In this document: positions 29,626 through 64,000 of the stretch, piece after piece | Numbering within the stretch: the first letter of the stretch is position 1 | Layout: each line of letters begins with the position of its first letter | IMG/VR virus record: IMGVR_UViG_2671180879_000003 | Location: 3,799-67,798 of that record | DNA: 64,000 nt | From: a virus | Lineage: Duplodnaviria > Caudoviricetes | Strand: one strand, 5' to 3' | Notes under the pieces: generated by a model | What the model was told of the DNA's origin: nothing | The model's database searches: none | Seen by the model: the letters and a program-made list of their open reading frames with translations, nothing else | Position numbers and translations under genes: made by a program

Positions 29626-29892
29626 CTAAGCTCCTTGTTTATCGTTATATTCTTTAATCGCTATTTCTTTAGCTTCTTCATAACTCAAACCAGTTTCTTC
29701 TAACTCCTTTGTTCTTATCCATATTGGGTAAGCTATACTCAATGCTTCATCCCCATATTTTTCTCTTTGTCTATCAAGTATCCACTTAGCTTTTCTTCTT
29801 TCTATTTCCTCAATCCAATATGGATCTTCTGGGTAAACTACCTCAACTTTTATTTCTCTGCTTTTTCTTGGTGTCATCGCAACCACCCCCAC
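29626..29892 (-). CDS. Small protein, candidate recombination directionality factor (probable start ATG 29877)
   Basis: GGGGGTGG RBS; SpoIIID/sigE-like promoter; last intact ORF before the recombinase. Confidence 0.6.
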   Translation of the reverse strand: MGVVAMTPRKSREIKVEVVYPEDPYWIEEIERRKAKWILDRQREKYGDEALSIAYPIWIRTKELEETGLSYEEAKEIAIKEYNDKQGA

Positions 29893-29895
29893 TAA

Positions 29896-29925
29896 ATTTT
29901 ATGTTTATTGAAAATTGTCCTATGC
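29896..29925 (-). promoter_or_regulatory. SigE-like promoter overlapping SpoIIID box
   Basis: ATA-N17-CATAAAAT with TAGGACAATT (WWRRACARnY). Confidence 0.65.
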
Positions 29926-30614
29926 AATTTATCTTGATTTACTAACTTCTAACTCTACTTTTAAATTATTTCTTGACTTTTTAGTTTTTTATTTGGTATG
30001 ATCATATATTTTTCTAAGGTTATTTTTTAATCACCTCCATGTATATTTAAATATACCTACCAATAAATCGTATGTGTTTTAATTTTCTTTTTTAACTTAT
30101 AAGCCATACAAGTATATAAGGATTATATAACTCACATAAATTAATATTTACTTTAGAAATTACATTTAATCTTGTAGAGTACTTTTACTAATCAATATAA
30201 ATTGAAAATATATAGAAGGAGTTGTAAAAAACTGCGTATTCAAGTACTCGATTCAAAATGAATTCTACTTAATTGTCAAATATTTTATAAGCTTATTCTT
30301 TAAAAAAGTTTGATTAAAAATGTAACTGAATTAACTGAAACTACTTAAAATATTAAGTAATACGAGATATTAAATTTGAATAGTATTAAAAATACAGAAA
30401 ATAATTTAGTAATTGATTTTAAAACAACAATCTAACTTTAATTATCTTACTATTTAAACATTGTCATGCTTTATGATTCTTCATACACTATTAAAAATTT
30501 ATTCCAAGGTACAATTGATACTCCTATACTTGTAATTTATAGATAGATTAAATACTCCTGTCGTAATTATGAATTTATATACTTAAAATTTAATATTAAG
30601 GAGAGTAGAACCTT

Positions 30615-32207
30615 ATGATTGCTGCAATCTATTCAAGAAAATCAAAATTTACTGGAAAAGGTGAATCTATAGAAAACCAAATACAACTTTGCATGGACTA
30701 TGCTAAGAACCTAGGAGTTAATGAATTTTTAGTATACGAAGATGAAGGTTTTTCTGGTAAATCTATGGATAGACCAAAGTTTAAAGAAATGCTTAAAGAT
30801 GCTAAAGATAAAAAGTTTGATTATTTAATATGTTATAGATTAGATAGAATATCCCGTAATGTTTCTGACTTCTCTACTCTTATAGAAGATCTAAATAAGC
30901 TTAATATATCTTTTGTATCAATTAAAGAACAATTTGATACTAGTACTCCTATGGGACGTGCTATGATGTATATATCATCTGTATTTGCTCAGTTAGAGAG
31001 AGAAACTATAGCTGAACGTGTTAGAGATAATATGTATGAGTTAGCTAGAACAGGAAGATGGCTAGGAGGTATGCCTCCATATGGTTTTATTAGTACTCAA
31101 ATTAACTACTATGATGAAAATATGAACCAAAGAAAAATGTATAAACTTAAAGTTGATGAAGACACAATAGAAATTGTTAAATTAATATTTGATAAATATT
31201 TAGAGCTTAGATCACTTTCAAAGCTTTATAAATATATGTATGAGAATGGAATTAAAGGAACTCGTGGAGGTAACCTTGATCCTAGTGCCTTATCTTTAAT
31301 CCTAAAAAATCCATCATATGTTAAAGCTGATAAAAGTGTAGTTGATTATCTAAGAAAGTCTAATATAGATGTTATGGGAGATATAGATAATATACATGGT
31401 ATCCTAACTTATGCTAAAAATACAGATAGTCCTATAGCTGCTGTTGCTAAACATAAAGGTGTCATAGATTCGGATAAATGGATTGAAGCCCAAAGGTTAC
31501 TTAATGCAAATAAAGCTAAAGCTCCTAGGGCTGGAACTGGGGCTAAGGCATTATTATCAGGTCTTTTAAAATGTTCTAAGTGTGGCTCTAATATGAGAAT
31601 TACTTATAAAAACTCTAAAAGTGGTACTATCTATTATTACATATGTGGAACAAAGAAATCTTTAGGCGTATCAGCTTGTGATTGTAGAAATATCAGATCT
31701 GATAAGGCTGAATCTAAAGTTATAGATGAATTAAAAAATAAAAGTATTAAATCTATAATGTCAAGTTATAAAGATAGCAAGTTAGAAAACTCTAAGAATA
31801 GTAAAAATATAAAAACTGAGATAAACTCAATAAATAATCAAATTAAAGAAAAGGAAACATACATTGATAATTTAGTTATGCAATTAGCCAAGGTTACCGA
31901 AAGCTCTGCATCTACTTTTATAATCAATAAATTAGAATCTTTAAATAATGACTTATCTAATTTAAAATCACAATTAGAATCTTTAAATACTATGTCTATG
32001 GAAAATAAGCAAGTTGATATTAATATAAATATGCTTATAGATAATTTAAATAAATTCAATAAAGAAATTGATACCTCTGATATCAATAAGAAGAGACTGT
32101 TACTATCTACAGTAGTAGATTATATGACATGGGACTCTGATACAGACACAATAAAGGTAAACCTAATAGGTATCAATCCAAGCAATACTATAGCTTCGGA
32201 TAAATAG
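30615..32207 (+). CDS. Large serine recombinase of element 1
   Basis: YSRKS, DEGFSG, RLDRISR, zinc ribbon CSKC, coiled coil; intact 530 aa. Confidence 0.95.
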   Translation: MIAAIYSRKSKFTGKGESIENQIQLCMDYAKNLGVNEFLVYEDEGFSGKSMDRPKFKEMLKDAKDKKFDYLICYRLDRISRNVSDFSTLIEDLNKLNISFVSIKEQFDTSTPMGRAMMYISSVFAQLERETIAERVRDNMYELARTGRWLGGMPPYGFISTQINYYDENMNQRKMYKLKVDEDTIEIVKLIFDKYLELRSLSKLYKYMYENGIKGTRGGNLDPSALSLILKNPSYVKADKSVVDYLRKSNIDVMGDIDNIHGILTYAKNTDSPIAAVAKHKGVIDSDKWIEAQRLLNANKAKAPRAGTGAKALLSGLLKCSKCGSNMRITYKNSKSGTIYYYICGTKKSLGVSACDCRNIRSDKAESKVIDELKNKSIKSIMSSYKDSKLENSKNSKNIKTEINSINNQIKEKETYIDNLVMQLAKVTESSASTFIINKLESLNNDLSNLKSQLESLNTMSMENKQVDININMLIDNLNKFNKEIDTSDINKKRLLLSTVVDYMTWDSDTDTIKVNLIGINPSNTIASDK

Positions 32208-61808: not shown

Positions 61809-61815
61809 AGTTTAG

Positions 61816-62301
61816 GTGATTTATATGAATATATATGAAGAATTACAACAAGAAGCACATGAAAATAATATAATAGTAAAAGAAGTTTCACTTAAGTCAA
61901 GCTCTGATGGTCTATATTATGATGGAAAAATTGCTATAAATAAAACTAGATTGACTACTAATAAAGAAAAGGCATGCGTTTTAGCAGAAGAGCTTGCCCA
62001 TCATTATAAAAGTTATGGAAATATATTAGATACAGATGATATGTCAAATGCTAAACAAGAATATAAAGCTAGACTATTTTCTTATGATAAGTTAATCGGT
62101 TTAAATGGAATTATAAATGCTTGGAAAAATTATTGCAGAACTAAAGAAGAAATAGCTGACTATTTAAATGTCACTATTCCTTTTTTGGATGAAGCTATAG
62201 AATGCTATAAAAAAAAATACGACCCTTCTGTTCAGATAGATAACTATGCAATATCATTTTCTCCTAGTTTAATTATAACCGAACTTATTGATATATTTTA
62301 A
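61816..62301 (+). CDS. ImmA/IrrE-family metallopeptidase
   Basis: CVLAEELAHH...KQEYKAR. Confidence 0.85.
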   Translation: MIYMNIYEELQQEAHENNIIVKEVSLKSSSDGLYYDGKIAINKTRLTTNKEKACVLAEELAHHYKSYGNILDTDDMSNAKQEYKARLFSYDKLIGLNGIINAWKNYCRTKEEIADYLNVTIPFLDEAIECYKKKYDPSVQIDNYAISFSPSLIITELIDIF

Positions 62302-62461
62302 TACTATTTATGAAAGATTGCTATCAGCTTAATCTATTCTAACTAGTATTTTTTCATAAATGTATTAATAGATTTTTTATAATCGCATACCTTTAATTAA
62401 TAAACTCTATACAAAATTAATATAATTTAATATCTTAATTAAAATAAATTTATAAAGGTGA

Positions 62462-64000
62462 ATGACTATGATAAAAACCTGTATTTACTTAAGAAAATCA
62501 CGTTCTGATGAAGAATGTGAAAAACAAGGAGAATTCGAAACTCTAAGTAGACATAGATCTACTCTTTTAAAATTAGCAAAAGAACAAAATCTAGATATAA
62601 TTGAAATAAAAGAAGAGCTAGTATCAGGAGAAAGTATTTCTTATAGACCTAAAATGATAGAACTTTTAGACGAAGTAAAAAATGGCCTTTATGATTCTGT
62701 ATTAGTTATGGATATAGATAGACTTGGTAGAGGTAATATGCAAGACCAAGGTCTTATACTTGAAACTTTTAAAAAGTCAAATACTAAAATTATAACACCT
62801 AGAAAAACATATGACTTAAATAATGAATGGGATGAAGAATACTCTGAGTTTGAAGCATTTATGGCACGTAAAGAACTTAAACTCATAAATAGGCGTATGC
62901 AAAGAGGTCGAGTTAAAAGCGTTGAAGAAGGCAAATTTATAGCTAGTAAACCTCCCTATGGTTATAAATTTATATTTGATGAGTCTGGAAAAAAATCTAT
63001 GATCATAGATAATGATAAAGCAGAAGTTATAAAAATGATATTTGATTTGTATGTTAATAAACATTATGGAGGAGTTAAAATATCTTCCCACTTAAATTCA
63101 TTAGGATTAAAAACATCTACAGGTAGAACTTGGTATCCTAAAGTAGTTAGAGATATATTAAAGAATAAAACTTATGCAGGCTATGTTGTATGGAATAAAG
63201 TTGATAGAGGGAAAAACAATTCTAGAACTAGGCCCGTTGATGAGCATATTGAAGCAAAGGGAATTCACGAGCCTATAATAGATGAATCTATCTTCATAGA
63301 AGCTCAAACCCTATTTAAAAATAGCTCAATCCCATCTACAAAAAAAAATACATCTATAACAAATCCCCTAGCAGGTTTGATAATTTGCTCTGAATGTGGT
63401 CATAAAATGATAGCTCAACAGTCAACTTATAAAAATAACGAATTGGTTAAGTTTTTAAAATGTCTAAACTGTGGTAAAAATAGAGGTTCTAAGCTTAGTA
63501 TTGTTGAGAAAGAAATAATCAATGAGCTTGAAAATTGGATAGCTTCTTATCAAGTTTCAATTAAAAACCTAGAGTCTCCTAAGAATAATAATTCAAATTT
63601 AGAGTCTTACTACTCTATTATAAAATCACTTGATTGTGAATATAAAACATTATTAAAACAAAAAGAAAATTTACATAATTTATTGGAGCAGGATATTTAT
63701 GATGTAGACACATATCTTGATAGATCTAAAGTTCTTGCTGATAAAATTGATTTAAACAGAGACAATTTAACACAAGCAAAAAAAGATTTAAAAAAAGAAA
63801 AAGAGTCTAATTTTTCTATATCCGATATACTACCTCAAGTTGAGAACGTTTTAGAATTATATTATCAAAGTGATAATATGCAAGAAAGAAATGATTTGTT
63901 AAAAGAAGTTATAGACTATATAGAATATAGTAGAGAACCTAAAAAAAGACTTTCAAAGTTCAACATCAAAATATATCCAAGACTTAGATATAATAAATAA
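62462..64000 (+). CDS. Large serine recombinase of element 2
   Basis: YLRKSR, DIDRLGRG, CSECG zinc ribbon; intact 512 aa. Confidence 0.95.
   Translation: MTMIKTCIYLRKSRSDEECEKQGEFETLSRHRSTLLKLAKEQNLDIIEIKEELVSGESISYRPKMIELLDEVKNGLYDSVLVMDIDRLGRGNMQDQGLILETFKKSNTKIITPRKTYDLNNEWDEEYSEFEAFMARKELKLINRRMQRGRVKSVEEGKFIASKPPYGYKFIFDESGKKSMIIDNDKAEVIKMIFDLYVNKHYGGVKISSHLNSLGLKTSTGRTWYPKVVRDILKNKTYAGYVVWNKVDRGKNNSRTRPVDEHIEAKGIHEPIIDESIFIEAQTLFKNSSIPSTKKNTSITNPLAGLIICSECGHKMIAQQSTYKNNELVKFLKCLNCGKNRGSKLSIVEKEIINELENWIASYQVSIKNLESPKNNNSNLESYYSIIKSLDCEYKTLLKQKENLHNLLEQDIYDVDTYLDRSKVLADKIDLNRDNLTQAKKDLKKEKESNFSISDILPQVENVLELYYQSDNMQERNDLLKEVIDYIEYSREPKKRLSKFNIKIYPRLRYNK

Follow-up and report, generated by a model that had tools for sequence, protein, structure and literature searches.

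Several elements with site-specific recombinases are known from genes of sporulating bacteria. As described in the accounts cited, SPbeta lies in spsM of B. subtilis, with the recombinase SprA and the directionality factor SprB (PMC4191935, PMC5499854); skin lies in sigK of C. difficile (skin-Cd), with the recombinase CD1231 and the factor CD1234, the latter under sigE and SpoIIID (PMC5025042); gin lies in gerE of Bacillus cereus ATCC 10987, with GirC and GirX (PMC5595907); and yin lies in yabG of Clostridium botulinum (PMC10747680). C. tetani site-A prophages are located in sigK (PMC5553647), and the title of one reference describes PhiS63 as sigK-intervening; by their names, phiCT453A, phiCT19406A and PhiS63 presumably all belong to the sigK site.

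The stretch analyzed here (the window, 64,000 nucleotides of a 67,798-bp virus record) is a Paeniclostridium sordellii-type chromosome segment in which a NitT/TauT-type ABC importer has both its ATPase gene and its binding-protein gene interrupted, each by its own recombinase element (Table 1). This observation is confirmed, and our literature search found no paper describing the double split. The initial annotation read it as a double developmental DNA rearrangement, which our analysis partly supports: we hold, with moderate confidence, that two skin/SPbeta-type gene-intervening elements split one sigK-regulon importer and are removed in the mother cell to rebuild its genes.

In the published descriptions SPbeta is like element 2: it occupies a mother-cell gene, encodes a large serine recombinase and is an apparently active prophage. 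Besides an ordinary induction route (probable for element 2), it has a small factor expressed from a sporulation promoter (proposed for element 2). Target gene and recombinase lineage differ, and here a second element splits the partner gene. Skin-Cd, as reported, is like element 1: defective and prophage-like, with a sigE/SpoIIID-type promoter ahead of its small ORF, a serine recombinase retained, common throughout its species and leaving the split gene repairable. Its target is a sigma factor, whereas that of element 1 is a transporter subunit, and its SpoIIID box is located upstream of the promoter, not between the -35 and -10 positions as GGACAA is here. The Clostridioides islands found at both sites, carrying the eut operon, prfC or transporter/regulator genes, can be likened to gin, a non-phage element in which a serine recombinase is paired with a small accessory factor; gin is described with three recombinases and a regulator-gene target, whereas here there is one recombinase per island and two islands in one transporter. 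Yin is alike in its prophage-like character, serine recombinase, sigK-dependent target, predicted small directionality factor and putative sporulation promoter; it is reported as unique to one strain, whereas both sites described here are occupied in many species. Excision was demonstrated for SPbeta and observed for yin, whereas elements 1 and 2 are known here from sequence alone.

Table 1. Positions of elements, genes, junctions and candidate signals within the window.
Feature	Position	Strand	Basis
Element 1, decayed siphovirus-like prophage	1..32219		PHROG matches, in-frame stops
In-frame TAA, element 1 major head protein gene	15632..15634	-	PHROG major head protein match
In-frame TGA, element 1 gene between portal and head genes	16503..16505	-	Frame reading
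In-frame TAA, element 1 terminase large subunit gene	19147..19149	-	Single frame, one interruption
83-aa small ORF, candidate recombination directionality factor of LSR1	29626..29877	-	Position, homologues
ATA-GGACAA-N11-CATA motif before element 1 small ORF	29900..29923	-	sigE-type -35/-10 and SpoIIID-like box
LSR1, large serine recombinase, 530 aa	30615..32207	+	Pfam Resolvase, Recombinase, Zn_ribbon_recom
attR of element 1	32215..32232	+	Alignment to intact same-species gene
ytlC-like ATPase 3' fragment, last ~64 codons	32219..32413	+	tblastn
ytlD-like permease, intact	32400..33203 (alternative start 32346)	+	Pfam BPD_transp_1
TM1586-type nitroreductase-like gene, host	33271..34083	-	Pfam PF14512
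AC-N17-AATAATATA, candidate sigK-type promoter of binding-protein gene	34206..34233	+	Conserved form
ytlA-like lipoprotein binding protein, 5' fragment	34264..34812	+	Pfam NMT1
attL of element 2	34800..34816	+	Alignment to intact same-species gene
Element 2, apparently complete myovirus-type prophage	34811..64000		Phage gene matches
59-aa small ORF, candidate directionality factor of LSR2	60671..60850	-	Stretch common to relatives
Second ATA-GGACAA-N11-CATA copy, before element 2 small ORF	60876..60899	-	Motif search
Element 2 lysogeny switch	60941..62301		Pfam Peptidase_M78, ORF layout
LSR2, large serine recombinase, 512 aa in window	62462..64000	+	Pfam Recombinase, Resolvase, Zn_ribbon_recom

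Host island and junctions

Homology to the uninterrupted locus L011 spans exactly 32220..34810, and the same-species genome G046 (98% nucleotide identity) is homologous over this interval too. These end points bear out the placement of element 1 against a ytlC 3' fragment and of element 2 within ytlA in the initial annotation. The island holds the ATPase 3' end, an intact permease gene, a nitroreductase gene and the binding-protein 5' part; the LSR1 stop codon lies directly left of 32220, and the element 2 prophage starts right of 34810, with an amidase gene at 35004-35780 (-). The ATPase fragment matches residues 187-250 of the intact ATPase at 86% identity with no stop, and is 94% identical to the intact P. 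sordellii protein. Its stop is overlapped by the start of the permease, which is 85-89% identical to Paraclostridium permeases, and the nitroreductase-like gene has an identical position in L011, L009 and G046. The binding-protein fragment reads as 182 aa from a TTG (185 codons if the start is 34255) with a stop supplied by element DNA; it spans residues 2-190 of a 348-aa intact protein and also aligns to an intact 344-aa P. sordellii protein. In genome G046 both genes are intact, the ATPase as a 253-aa ORF and the binding protein with 347 aa.

The element 1 crossover falls inside the codons for ...THDISE|A..., at ATPase gene codons 189-191. The window fragment reads HLSE|AISMS..., and the 196-aa ATPase 5' halves of other strains, which end in ...THDISE plus six foreign residues, overlap it at ...SE... 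in one frame. The element 2 crossover lies at about ...TDIQ|F..., after binding-protein codon 182 (344-aa numbering); in G004 the two binding-protein halves overlap by 14 nt (nt 546-559), and in other strains binding-protein halves of 182 and 146 aa match the intact 344-aa protein in order and in frame. The in-frame fit that the initial annotation asked for holds for the halves of other strains, while any halves kept by this genome would lie outside the record: both are absent from the 64-kb window and from the whole 67,798 bp, and 196 extra bases leftward from a metagenome contig still stop short of them. No excised form or rejoined gene was present among the reads, contigs and experiments seen for element-carrying strains.

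Two unlike elements, each with its own recombinase

Element 1, whose left end lies outside both the window and the record, keeps only its recombination module intact. Its PHROG matches comprise portal, terminase large subunit (two pieces), tape measure, endolysin and late regulator, and its early region has shrunk to about 4 kb. It is defective, with in-frame stops in three essential genes: the frames of the major head protein (16090->14930) and of the gene between portal and head genes (17009->16137) have one interruption each, and the terminase ORF pieces match phrog_9 profile positions 169-396 and 439-667. LSR1 shares 48% identity with the Terrisporobacter phage TPELB_ph1 integrase, and its exact sequence falls in a 107-member cluster whose listed named members come from P. 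sordellii. The 83-aa ORF, which is divergent from LSR1, has no Pfam or PHROG family match; a 23-member cluster, one member of which occurs on 204 contigs, includes its exact sequence, and its homologues adjoin LSR1-type recombinases with unrelated cargo at 10 of 30 loci (tblastn; alignment A2).

The right end of element 2 lies just past the window end. Besides the amidase it encodes small and large terminase subunits, portal, major head, sheath and tape measure proteins, a RecE-like exonuclease, RecT, and DnaD/DnaB_2-like and DnaC-like proteins, and none of the genes checked is broken. Both recombinases had been called intact, which the window can bear out for LSR1 only; LSR2 leaves the window at residue 512 and, since its homologues have 503-516 aa, is nearly complete. 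It is 69-77% identical to recombinases adjoining the 3' half of the binding-protein gene in G002-G004, 44-50% identical to the integrases found in isolated phages of Terrisporobacter, C. tetani and C. perfringens, and only 44-45% identical to those of C. tetani phiCT453A/phiCT19406A and C. perfringens PhiS63. Because LSR1 and LSR2 share only 25% identity over 352 aa, the description of the elements as unrelated is fair. The 59-aa ORF has no known family match (Pfam, PHROG), and shares the stretch SPE..LGRK.T.EE with ORFs of 93 and 62 aa that adjoin LSR2-type recombinases in various genomes, those of Clostridioides among them; similarity to a known directionality factor was detected for neither small ORF. 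The element 2 switch consists of a Cro-like ORF of 66 aa (-), an HTH repressor-like ORF of 160 aa (+) with a weak HTH_26 match below cut-off, and an ImmA/IrrE-type M78 peptidase of 161 aa (+), through which the element probably keeps an ordinary damage-induced lytic route, like SPbeta.

Promoter-like motifs and the sporulation link

The SpoIIID consensus is GGACAAG-like. Both elements had been credited with a SpoIIID/sigE-type promoter before a small ORF, and as a sequence feature this was borne out: ATAGGACAA-N11-CATA has exactly two matches in 64 kb, each directly upstream of a small ORF near a recombinase, against a chance expectation of 0.01 in the window, and two matches were reached in 0/100 shuffles. 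Among 198 loci ATA-GGACAA-N11-CATA occurs at 14, all of them recombinase loci, and it lies upstream of the small ORF in the LSR2-type islands of G010-G015, G039, G040 and G102. Five whole genomes contain five matches in total, three within binding-protein-splitting elements (reversed-motif control, one match), and the element-free genome G046 contains none. The motif was not found in the LSR1-type element L106, and that of the LSR1-type small ORFs in Clostridioides is looser, reading TATCA-GGACAA-N11-CATAGATTA. With the sigE -35 given as 'ATA' with a CATA-type -10 (PMC3789822), motif resemblance suggests a sigE/SpoIIID promoter.

The transporter genes themselves point to sigK. Inclusion of ytlA-ytlC-ytlD in the B. 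subtilis sigK regulon, stated in the initial annotation, agrees with the published listing (PMC3416734). In C. difficile 630, sigK-mutant ratios of 0.13 for CD1904, 0.08 for CD1927 'ytlC' and 0.08 for CD1891 are tabulated, and mapped sigK promoters precede CD1927 and CD1891 (PMC3789822 Table 2); by gene order and names, CD1904, CD1905, CD1927, CD1891 and CD1882 appear to belong to the loci examined here. The form AC-N17-AATAnnnTA, whose 'AC' is that of the sigK -35 (PMC3789822), is kept upstream of the binding-protein gene in 9/9 regions from two genera and upstream of the ATPase gene in 11/11.

We propose that growing cells and the forespore would keep the ATPase and binding-protein genes split. 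Both small ORFs would be switched on in the mother cell by sigE RNA polymerase and SpoIIID through the ATA-GGACAA-N11-CATA promoter, and each small protein would give direction to the large serine recombinase of its element, so that attL and attR are joined and the element is removed. The sigK-type promoters could then drive the rebuilt ytlC-ytlD operon and ytlA. Small-ORF function, excision, timing and cell type are all predicted steps of this scheme.

Recurrence, selection on the gene halves and alternative explanations

Both sites are reused across Peptostreptococcaceae. The initial annotation knew of no such case for ytl genes, but the arrangement recurs in Paraclostridium and Clostridioides, and the survey of related genomes that it suggested found both splits in six Clostridioides genomes (G010-G015), where the cargo is not of phage type. 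Among 30 LSR1-homologue loci from 112 family genomes, 11 have an ATPase 3' fragment and permease directly downstream; 11 of 30 LSR2-homologue loci have a binding-protein 3' half directly downstream, and two more have a 5' half. The ATPase gene is split in 5/5 Clostridioides genomes checked and the binding-protein gene in three of those five, and G002-G004 also have window-type binding-protein junctions. The cluster of P. sordellii ATPases has 49 members, of which 40 were read and 15 are listed; 13/15 listed members are 196-aa 5' halves and 2/15 are intact 250-aa proteins. Element 1 is defective, yet the ATPase split predominates among the listed members, which is the pattern of skin-like elements.

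Two temperate phages might instead simply use attachment sites in dispensable transporter genes, with the transporter off in lysogens, excision only on induction or by chance, and no developmental role. We consider this ordinary lysogeny rather unlikely, although several features agree with it. Large serine recombinases usually integrate inside genes; LSR1 and LSR2 share 44-50% identity with integrases from phages that are isolated or inducible; element 2, with its ImmA-type switch, looks complete; and both insertions are polymorphic within P. sordellii, varying independently (neither is present in G046, and only the first in run X15, whose binding-protein gene is intact). Against it, the detached halves in relatives remain open and under strong purifying selection over dS 0.3-0.8. 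Among Clostridioides genomes dN/dS is 0.015-0.08 for the ATPase 5' half, below 0.15 in 24/27 computable pairs for the 62-codon ATPase 3' fragment (in one pair, 2 non-synonymous against 11 synonymous changes), 0.02-0.05 for the permease and 0.10-0.22 for LSR1 homologues. For the detached binding-protein 3' half it is 0.015-0.11 (for example, 9 against 47 changes), a comparison between species that mixes time before and after insertion, the islands being absent in two of five Clostridioides genomes. Pairwise dS of LSR1 homologues tracks that of the permease (r = 0.91, 21 non-independent pairs), so the ATPase-gene split is old and inherited with the locus; such co-divergence counts against ordinary lysogeny. 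Nor does lysogeny account for the retention of a recombinase and small ORF in every element, with the recombinase intact even in defective or non-phage ones, despite cargo as unrelated as the prophage in the window, a whole eut operon in G010, prfC alone in G013 and transporter/regulator genes in Clostridioides binding-protein islands. The rare sigE/SpoIIID-like motif before the small ORFs of both recombinase lineages and the sigK dependence of both target genes in C. difficile also speak against it. The dN/dS of the halves, LSR1 co-divergence, the rare motif and the C. difficile sigK data all point to regular rejoining, and comparison with relatives including Clostridioides difficile suggests that the spore-making cell cuts both elements out.

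Selection on the halves would also follow if the split genes functioned unjoined, the 196-aa ATPase piece acting alone or with a separate C-terminal piece. The 5' half, ending as it does after ...VTHDISE, retains every catalytic motif as far as the H-loop (Walker A, signature, Walker B and the H-loop region), and all 13 of the 5' halves listed for P. sordellii share the one length. This explanation is nonetheless improbable: a 344-aa binding protein severed at residue 182 cannot fold from its two parts, of which the 3' half is constrained despite having no signal peptide; the ATPase 3' fragment, whose first residue is Ile in 6/8 Clostridioides genomes, has no conserved start; and splitting leaves the permease separated from the conserved promoter by 4-36 kb, with antisense cargo in between. 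A chimeric contig of two prophages and a 2.6-kb host island, conceivable for a trimmed provirus record in a collection of predicted viral regions and for metagenome assemblies generally, is highly improbable and already contradicted by independent Logan contigs that bridge both junctions in run X1, the first in X15 and the second in X7, by many P. sordellii assemblies with recorded truncated proteins that agree exactly in length and sequence, and by the same junctions in G002-G004 and Clostridioides chromosomes.

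Two interrupted subunit genes of one transporter

The 67,798-bp source record is classed as a provirus, and the window drawn from it, at ~28% G+C over its whole length, consists of two phage-like regions separated by a 2.6-kb host island, with nearly all long ORFs to the left of 30 kb and to the right of 35 kb being phage-like and lying on the minus strand. The island, at 32220-34810, is the exact extent of DNA homology to an uninterrupted Paeniclostridium hominis locus, and the identical span aligns at 98% identity with comparison genome G046, whose transporter locus is free of prophage and complete, encoding an ATPase (253-aa ORF), a permease, a TM1586-type nitroreductase on the opposite strand and a 347-aa binding protein. 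By the source names of exact-match proteins, the host is Paeniclostridium (Paraclostridium) sordellii. The proposal in the initial annotation that two serine-recombinase elements split two genes of one transporter was borne out, as homology to intact loci stops at precisely these two borders. The anatomy of the double split is certain: element 1, a decayed prophage, breaks the ATPase gene at codons 189-191, and element 2, a second prophage, breaks the binding-protein gene after codon 182. As in sporulation gene-intervening elements, both insertions lie inside host coding sequence with precise junctions, and each element has a large serine recombinase (LSR1 and LSR2, respectively) beside one end. 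Pfam and NCBIfam identified, at family level, an NMT1/SsuA-like binding protein, a BPD_transp_1 permease and an ABC ATPase in the one locus; no NCBIfam equivalog model reached its cut-off for the transporter proteins, no informative solved relative was found for the binding protein, and Rfam returned neither a riboswitch nor any other family ahead of the transporter genes.

Positions of features in the window and in comparison loci (L handles; G handles are the genomes)
Feature	Position	Description
ATPase gene, 3' remnant	32219-32413	last ~64 codons only; begins 12 nt past LSR1 stop codon
Binding-protein gene, 5' part	34264-34812	ends after 182 codons, at start of element 2
LSR1	30615-32207	intact; stop codon 12 nt short of ATPase junction
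Element 1 small ORF	29626-29877	83 aa, intact, divergent from LSR1
Element 2 small ORF	60671-60850	59 aa
Element 1 in-frame stop, head protein	15632-15634	TAA
Element 1 in-frame stop, portal-head intervening gene	16503-16505	TGA
Element 1 in-frame stop, terminase	19147-19149	TAA
Element 1 tRNA-like sequence	25531-25599 (-)	34.1 bits, reaching Rfam tRNA cut-off; shortened anticodon arm; no ARAGORN call
Element 2 tRNA-like sequence	55092-55165 (-)	tRNA-Lys (ttt) by ARAGORN
Element 1 43-aa ORF	28515-28646 (-)	resembles G013 46-aa ORF
G013 46-aa ORF	L142 9642-9782 (+)	outside the element, downstream of permease
G013 ATPase-site element	L142 3786-8117	~4.4 kb
G010 eut island	L143 4064-20000 and L144 1-3168 (G010:C1:2004063-2023168)	EutG, S, P, V, W, A, B, C ... 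H, Q
G015 permease	L103 3294-4090	two pieces in different frames

Whether joining the flanks restores ytlC-like and ytlA-like genes in frame could be judged with halves from other P. sordellii strains, which proved in frame or colinear, whereas this genome's own halves lie outside the record. The 196-aa ATPase 5' half of other strains ends ...VTHDISE plus six foreign residues, the window fragment reads HLSE|AISMS..., and together they align without a gap to an intact 250-aa protein, which places the crossover in codons 189-191 and predicts rejoining in frame. The binding-protein halves of P. sordellii strains (182 and 146 aa) are colinear with an intact 344-aa protein. Colinearity at the DNA level was seen for the binding-protein halves of G003 and of P. 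tenue G004, and in the latter the halves share a 14-nt overlap (nt 546-559 of the gene) and lie on either side of a ~41-kb element; the recombinase of this element shares 77% identity with LSR2. At the level of the species, as judged from halves of other strains combined with the window fragments, excision is predicted to restore the genes in frame. A search of the source record, which adds only 3,798 bases, all to the left, found neither the ATPase 5' half nor the binding-protein 3' half of this genome, and 196 further bases, gained from a metagenome contig that carries the gene at the far left, held no ATPase sequence. No rejoined form of either gene was confirmed in assembled contigs of public runs.

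Contig depths in these runs were not taken as evidence. Run X4 held an element-2-like 27-kb contig that ends at 34807 and has a depth of 207, where other long contigs have 109-146; a 56-nt contig of the same run over 34797-34836 reaches less than 31 nt to either side of the junction and was not counted as a bridge. Run X15 showed low depth in the permease bins and ~300 for a contig with the nitroreductase and binding protein. A 524-nt X15 contig comes out of unlike sequence, joins the window at 32223-32257 alone, and could be either a rejoined ATPase gene or a paralogue.

Recombinases and gene content of the two elements

Pfam Resolvase catalytic, recombinase and zinc-ribbon domains scored above cut-off in both LSR1 and LSR2. 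LSR2 extends to the window end, and its G004 homologue stops 5 nt short of the binding-protein 3' half. The elements differ in gene content. Their two recombinases share 25% identity over 352 aa, in agreement with the earlier description of the phages as unrelated. The nearest relatives of LSR1 and LSR2 in the phage collection are Terrisporobacter, Clostridium and Thermoanaerobacterium phage integrases (44-50% identity), and the relatives of LSR2 include the integrases of C. tetani phiCT453A/phiCT19406A and of C. perfringens PhiS63. PMC5553647 gives sigK as the location of the C. tetani site-A prophages, with which we infer the phiCT453A/phiCT19406A names to correspond, and one of the titles it cites describes PhiS63 as a functional sigK-intervening element.

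Element 1 carries portal, tape measure, endolysin and late regulator genes, but a single in-frame stop interrupts each of three genes, those for the terminase large subunit and the head protein and the one that separates portal from head. No frameshift was seen in these three genes, and we read the stops as decay; stop-codon recoding is unlikely, given that two different stop codons are involved. With stops in three essential late genes and an early region reduced to only ~4 kb, element 1 is not a functional temperate phage. Element 2 encodes small and large terminase, portal, head, sheath, tape measure, amidase, RecT/RecE-like, DnaD-like and DnaC-like proteins, a Cro-like/repressor-like pair, an ImmA-type peptidase, the 59-aa ORF and LSR2; all temperate-phage modules are present, and none of the genes checked was broken. 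Taken alone, element 2 fits the main rival explanation, plain lysogeny in a dispensable transporter, which we regard as unlikely overall; it leaves unexplained the recombination modules retained in defective and, as described below, non-phage elements.

Each element has a tRNA-like sequence ahead of its late genes, that of element 1 being the sole Rfam match. Beyond the element 1 endolysin, record sequence that reaches leftward from the window start and overlaps it (L004 1-4656) encodes a SHOCT-domain protein and two NlpC/P60 proteins in which ~40-aa repeats form long arrays, and a ~93-nt stretch at window 1083-1173 has an 80%-identity copy ~100-190 nt before the record begins (L192 1248-1340).

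Distribution of the splits and selection on the gene halves

The P. sordellii ATPase cluster has 49 members, 40 of which were read; 13 of the 15 members listed are 196-aa halves and two are intact. The listed P. sordellii binding proteins comprise nine full-length or nearly full-length sequences, four 182-aa halves, one 146-aa 3' half and one 152-aa piece, and run X15 contains the LSR1-ATPase-fragment junction together with an uninterrupted binding-protein gene. Among listed sequences, then, the ATPase insertion predominates, the binding-protein insertion is in the minority, and the two vary independently. Closed P. sordellii genomes with both elements exist, as the exact small-ORF and recombinase proteins are found on contigs as long as 3.6 Mb. 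LSR1 homologues (E <= 1e-60) and LSR2 homologues (E <= 1e-100) each occur in 29 of 112 family genomes. The recombinase is directly followed by the ATPase 3' fragment and permease in 11 of 30 LSR1-homologue loci and by neither in 17, the remaining two stopping at a contig end and not being judged. Directly after the LSR2-type recombinase lies the binding-protein 3' half in 11 of 30 loci, with neither half present in 17; in the other two (L166 in G092 and L172 in G040) the recombinase abuts an inverted 5' half, the element being reversed or the region inverted. The survey of relatives for split ytlA/ytlC counterparts suggested at the outset thus found splits at both sites, and both together in six of the 112 genomes (G010-G015, Clostridioides difficile and unclassified Clostridioides).

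The Clostridioides elements at both sites are not phages. The ATPase-site element of G013 contains only prfC (peptide chain release factor 3, 532 aa), a 58-aa ORF and the recombinase. At the same site G010 carries a whole ethanolamine-utilisation operon, ~18.5 kb, between the two ATPase halves, and the adjoining LSR1-type recombinase and 58-aa ORF mark eut as cargo of a serine-recombinase island. The islands at the binding-protein site (7-10 kb) hold genes for transporters, sigma factors and regulators alongside a 93-aa ORF and a recombinase. A recombinase and a small ORF are all that the elements at a given site have in common.

In all genomes examined the two gene halves are open, and they bear the mark of purifying selection. 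Within Clostridioides, dN/dS is 0.015-0.08 for the ATPase 5' half, mostly 0.02-0.15 for its 62-codon 3' fragment, 0.02-0.05 for the permease and 0.015-0.11 for the detached binding-protein 3' half; for LSR1 homologues it is 0.10-0.22. Pairwise dS of LSR1 homologues correlates with the dS of the permease next to them (r = 0.91, 21 non-independent pairs), which argues that the ATPase gene has been split for as long as these genomes have diverged. Half a binding protein that lacks a signal peptide could not plausibly function alone, and conserved gene halves are left unexplained by plain lysogeny. Regular rejoining of the split genes is the simplest reading, and one well supported by the selection seen in relatives. 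The G015 permease looks frameshifted in this one genome.

A shared upstream motif and a proposed link to sporulation

Upstream of the small ORFs, candidate directionality factors beside the recombinases, we found ATA-GGACAA-N11-CATAAAAT in element 1 and ATA-GGACAA-N11-CATATAAAT in element 2, with an ATA-to-CATA spacing of exactly 17 nt in both. GGACAA resembles the SpoIIID box. The pattern ATAGGACAA-N11-CATA matches the window twice, both times before these small ORFs, against 0.01 matches expected, and none of 100 shuffles reached two. The motif occurs in 14 of 198 fetched loci, all 14 of them recombinase loci, and a short ORF lies behind it in 11 of 11 inspected, the ORF being shortened by the start-finder or by locus ends in five. 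Across five whole genomes there were five matches in total, three of them inside binding-protein-splitting elements, compared with one for a reversed-motif control, and element-free G046 had none. Clostridioides ATPase-site elements carry a looser form, TATCA-GGACAA-N11-CATAGATTA, and element L106 has no such motif. The initial annotation had placed a SpoIIID/sigE-type promoter before each small ORF; the motif is indeed present in both elements, and its status as a promoter is putative, by resemblance. Plain lysogeny does not account for a motif shared in this way. According to PMC3789822, C. difficile promoters have ATA as the sigE -35 and AC as the sigK -35, with a similar -10 in both.

The core sporulation gene list in PMC3416734 places ytlA, ytlC and ytlD under sigK, as the initial annotation had stated, and the present transporter connects to these B. 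subtilis genes solely through CD1927, for which PMC3789822 uses the name 'ytlC'. Table 2 of that paper lists three C. difficile 630 genes as down in a sigK mutant, CD1927 ('ytlC, ATP-binding') having a sigK-mutant ratio of 0.08 and a sigK promoter, CD1891 likewise a ratio of 0.08 and a sigK promoter, and CD1904 a ratio of 0.13. The eut operon is CD1907-CD1925 (PMC3483176), and CD1905 and CD1882 are recombinases (PMC2784873); these locus tags fit the Clostridioides gene order of permease, recombinase, small ORF, eut and ATPase 5' half, and it is from gene order that we infer the mapping. If the mapping holds, the permease is sigK-dependent even though its only conserved promoter lies beyond ~20 kb of antisense cargo, as would be expected of a DNA rearrangement. 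All 11 sequences from upstream of the ATPase gene, and all nine from upstream of the binding-protein gene (window 34206-34233 among them), retain AC-N17-AATAnnnTA.

The reading that best fits these observations is a putative rejoining of the two genes in the mother cell, controlled by sigE and SpoIIID, and we hold it to be slightly on the probable side. More tentatively, and with somewhat less than even confidence, we propose that in Peptostreptococcaceae, including the model pathogen C. difficile, two serine-recombinase excisions, independent of each other, restore a sigK-regulon ABC importer in the mother cell. A single sigE/SpoIIID promoter type, common to both elements and placed ahead of lineage-specific directionality factors, would trigger each excision, and unrelated mobile elements would have given rise to this developmental AND gate repeatedly; in the C. 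difficile group one excised element would contain the entire eut operon, which would thus be lost from the mother-cell chromosome.

The targets of developmental DNA excision in the literature searched are sigK, spsM, spoVFB, spoVR, gerE and yabG, and we found no description of the present arrangement in that literature, which excluded subscription journals and supplementary tables. If true, the mother-cell rejoining of both genes would add two targets to this short list, subunits of one transporter, in a two-lock design where one function requires two separate excisions. On the same condition, the eut operon of C. difficile-group genomes would come to be seen as intervening-element cargo, and sets of recombinase, factor and att sites governed by a defined regulatory signal would become available. 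C. difficile 630 is amenable to such work, with sigE, spoIIID and sigK mutants in existence and the pieces already listed as sigK-dependent.

Two further loci carry the ATAGGACAA-N11-CATA motif with a small ORF, L119 1011-1235 (G036, 58 aa) and L129 3432-3627 (G099, 48 aa). An identification of the sporulation protein YunB in the L129 flank was not claimed, Pfam giving no match. The recombinases of both loci are more distant LSR1 homologues (45-49% identity) and lie away from the ATPase site.
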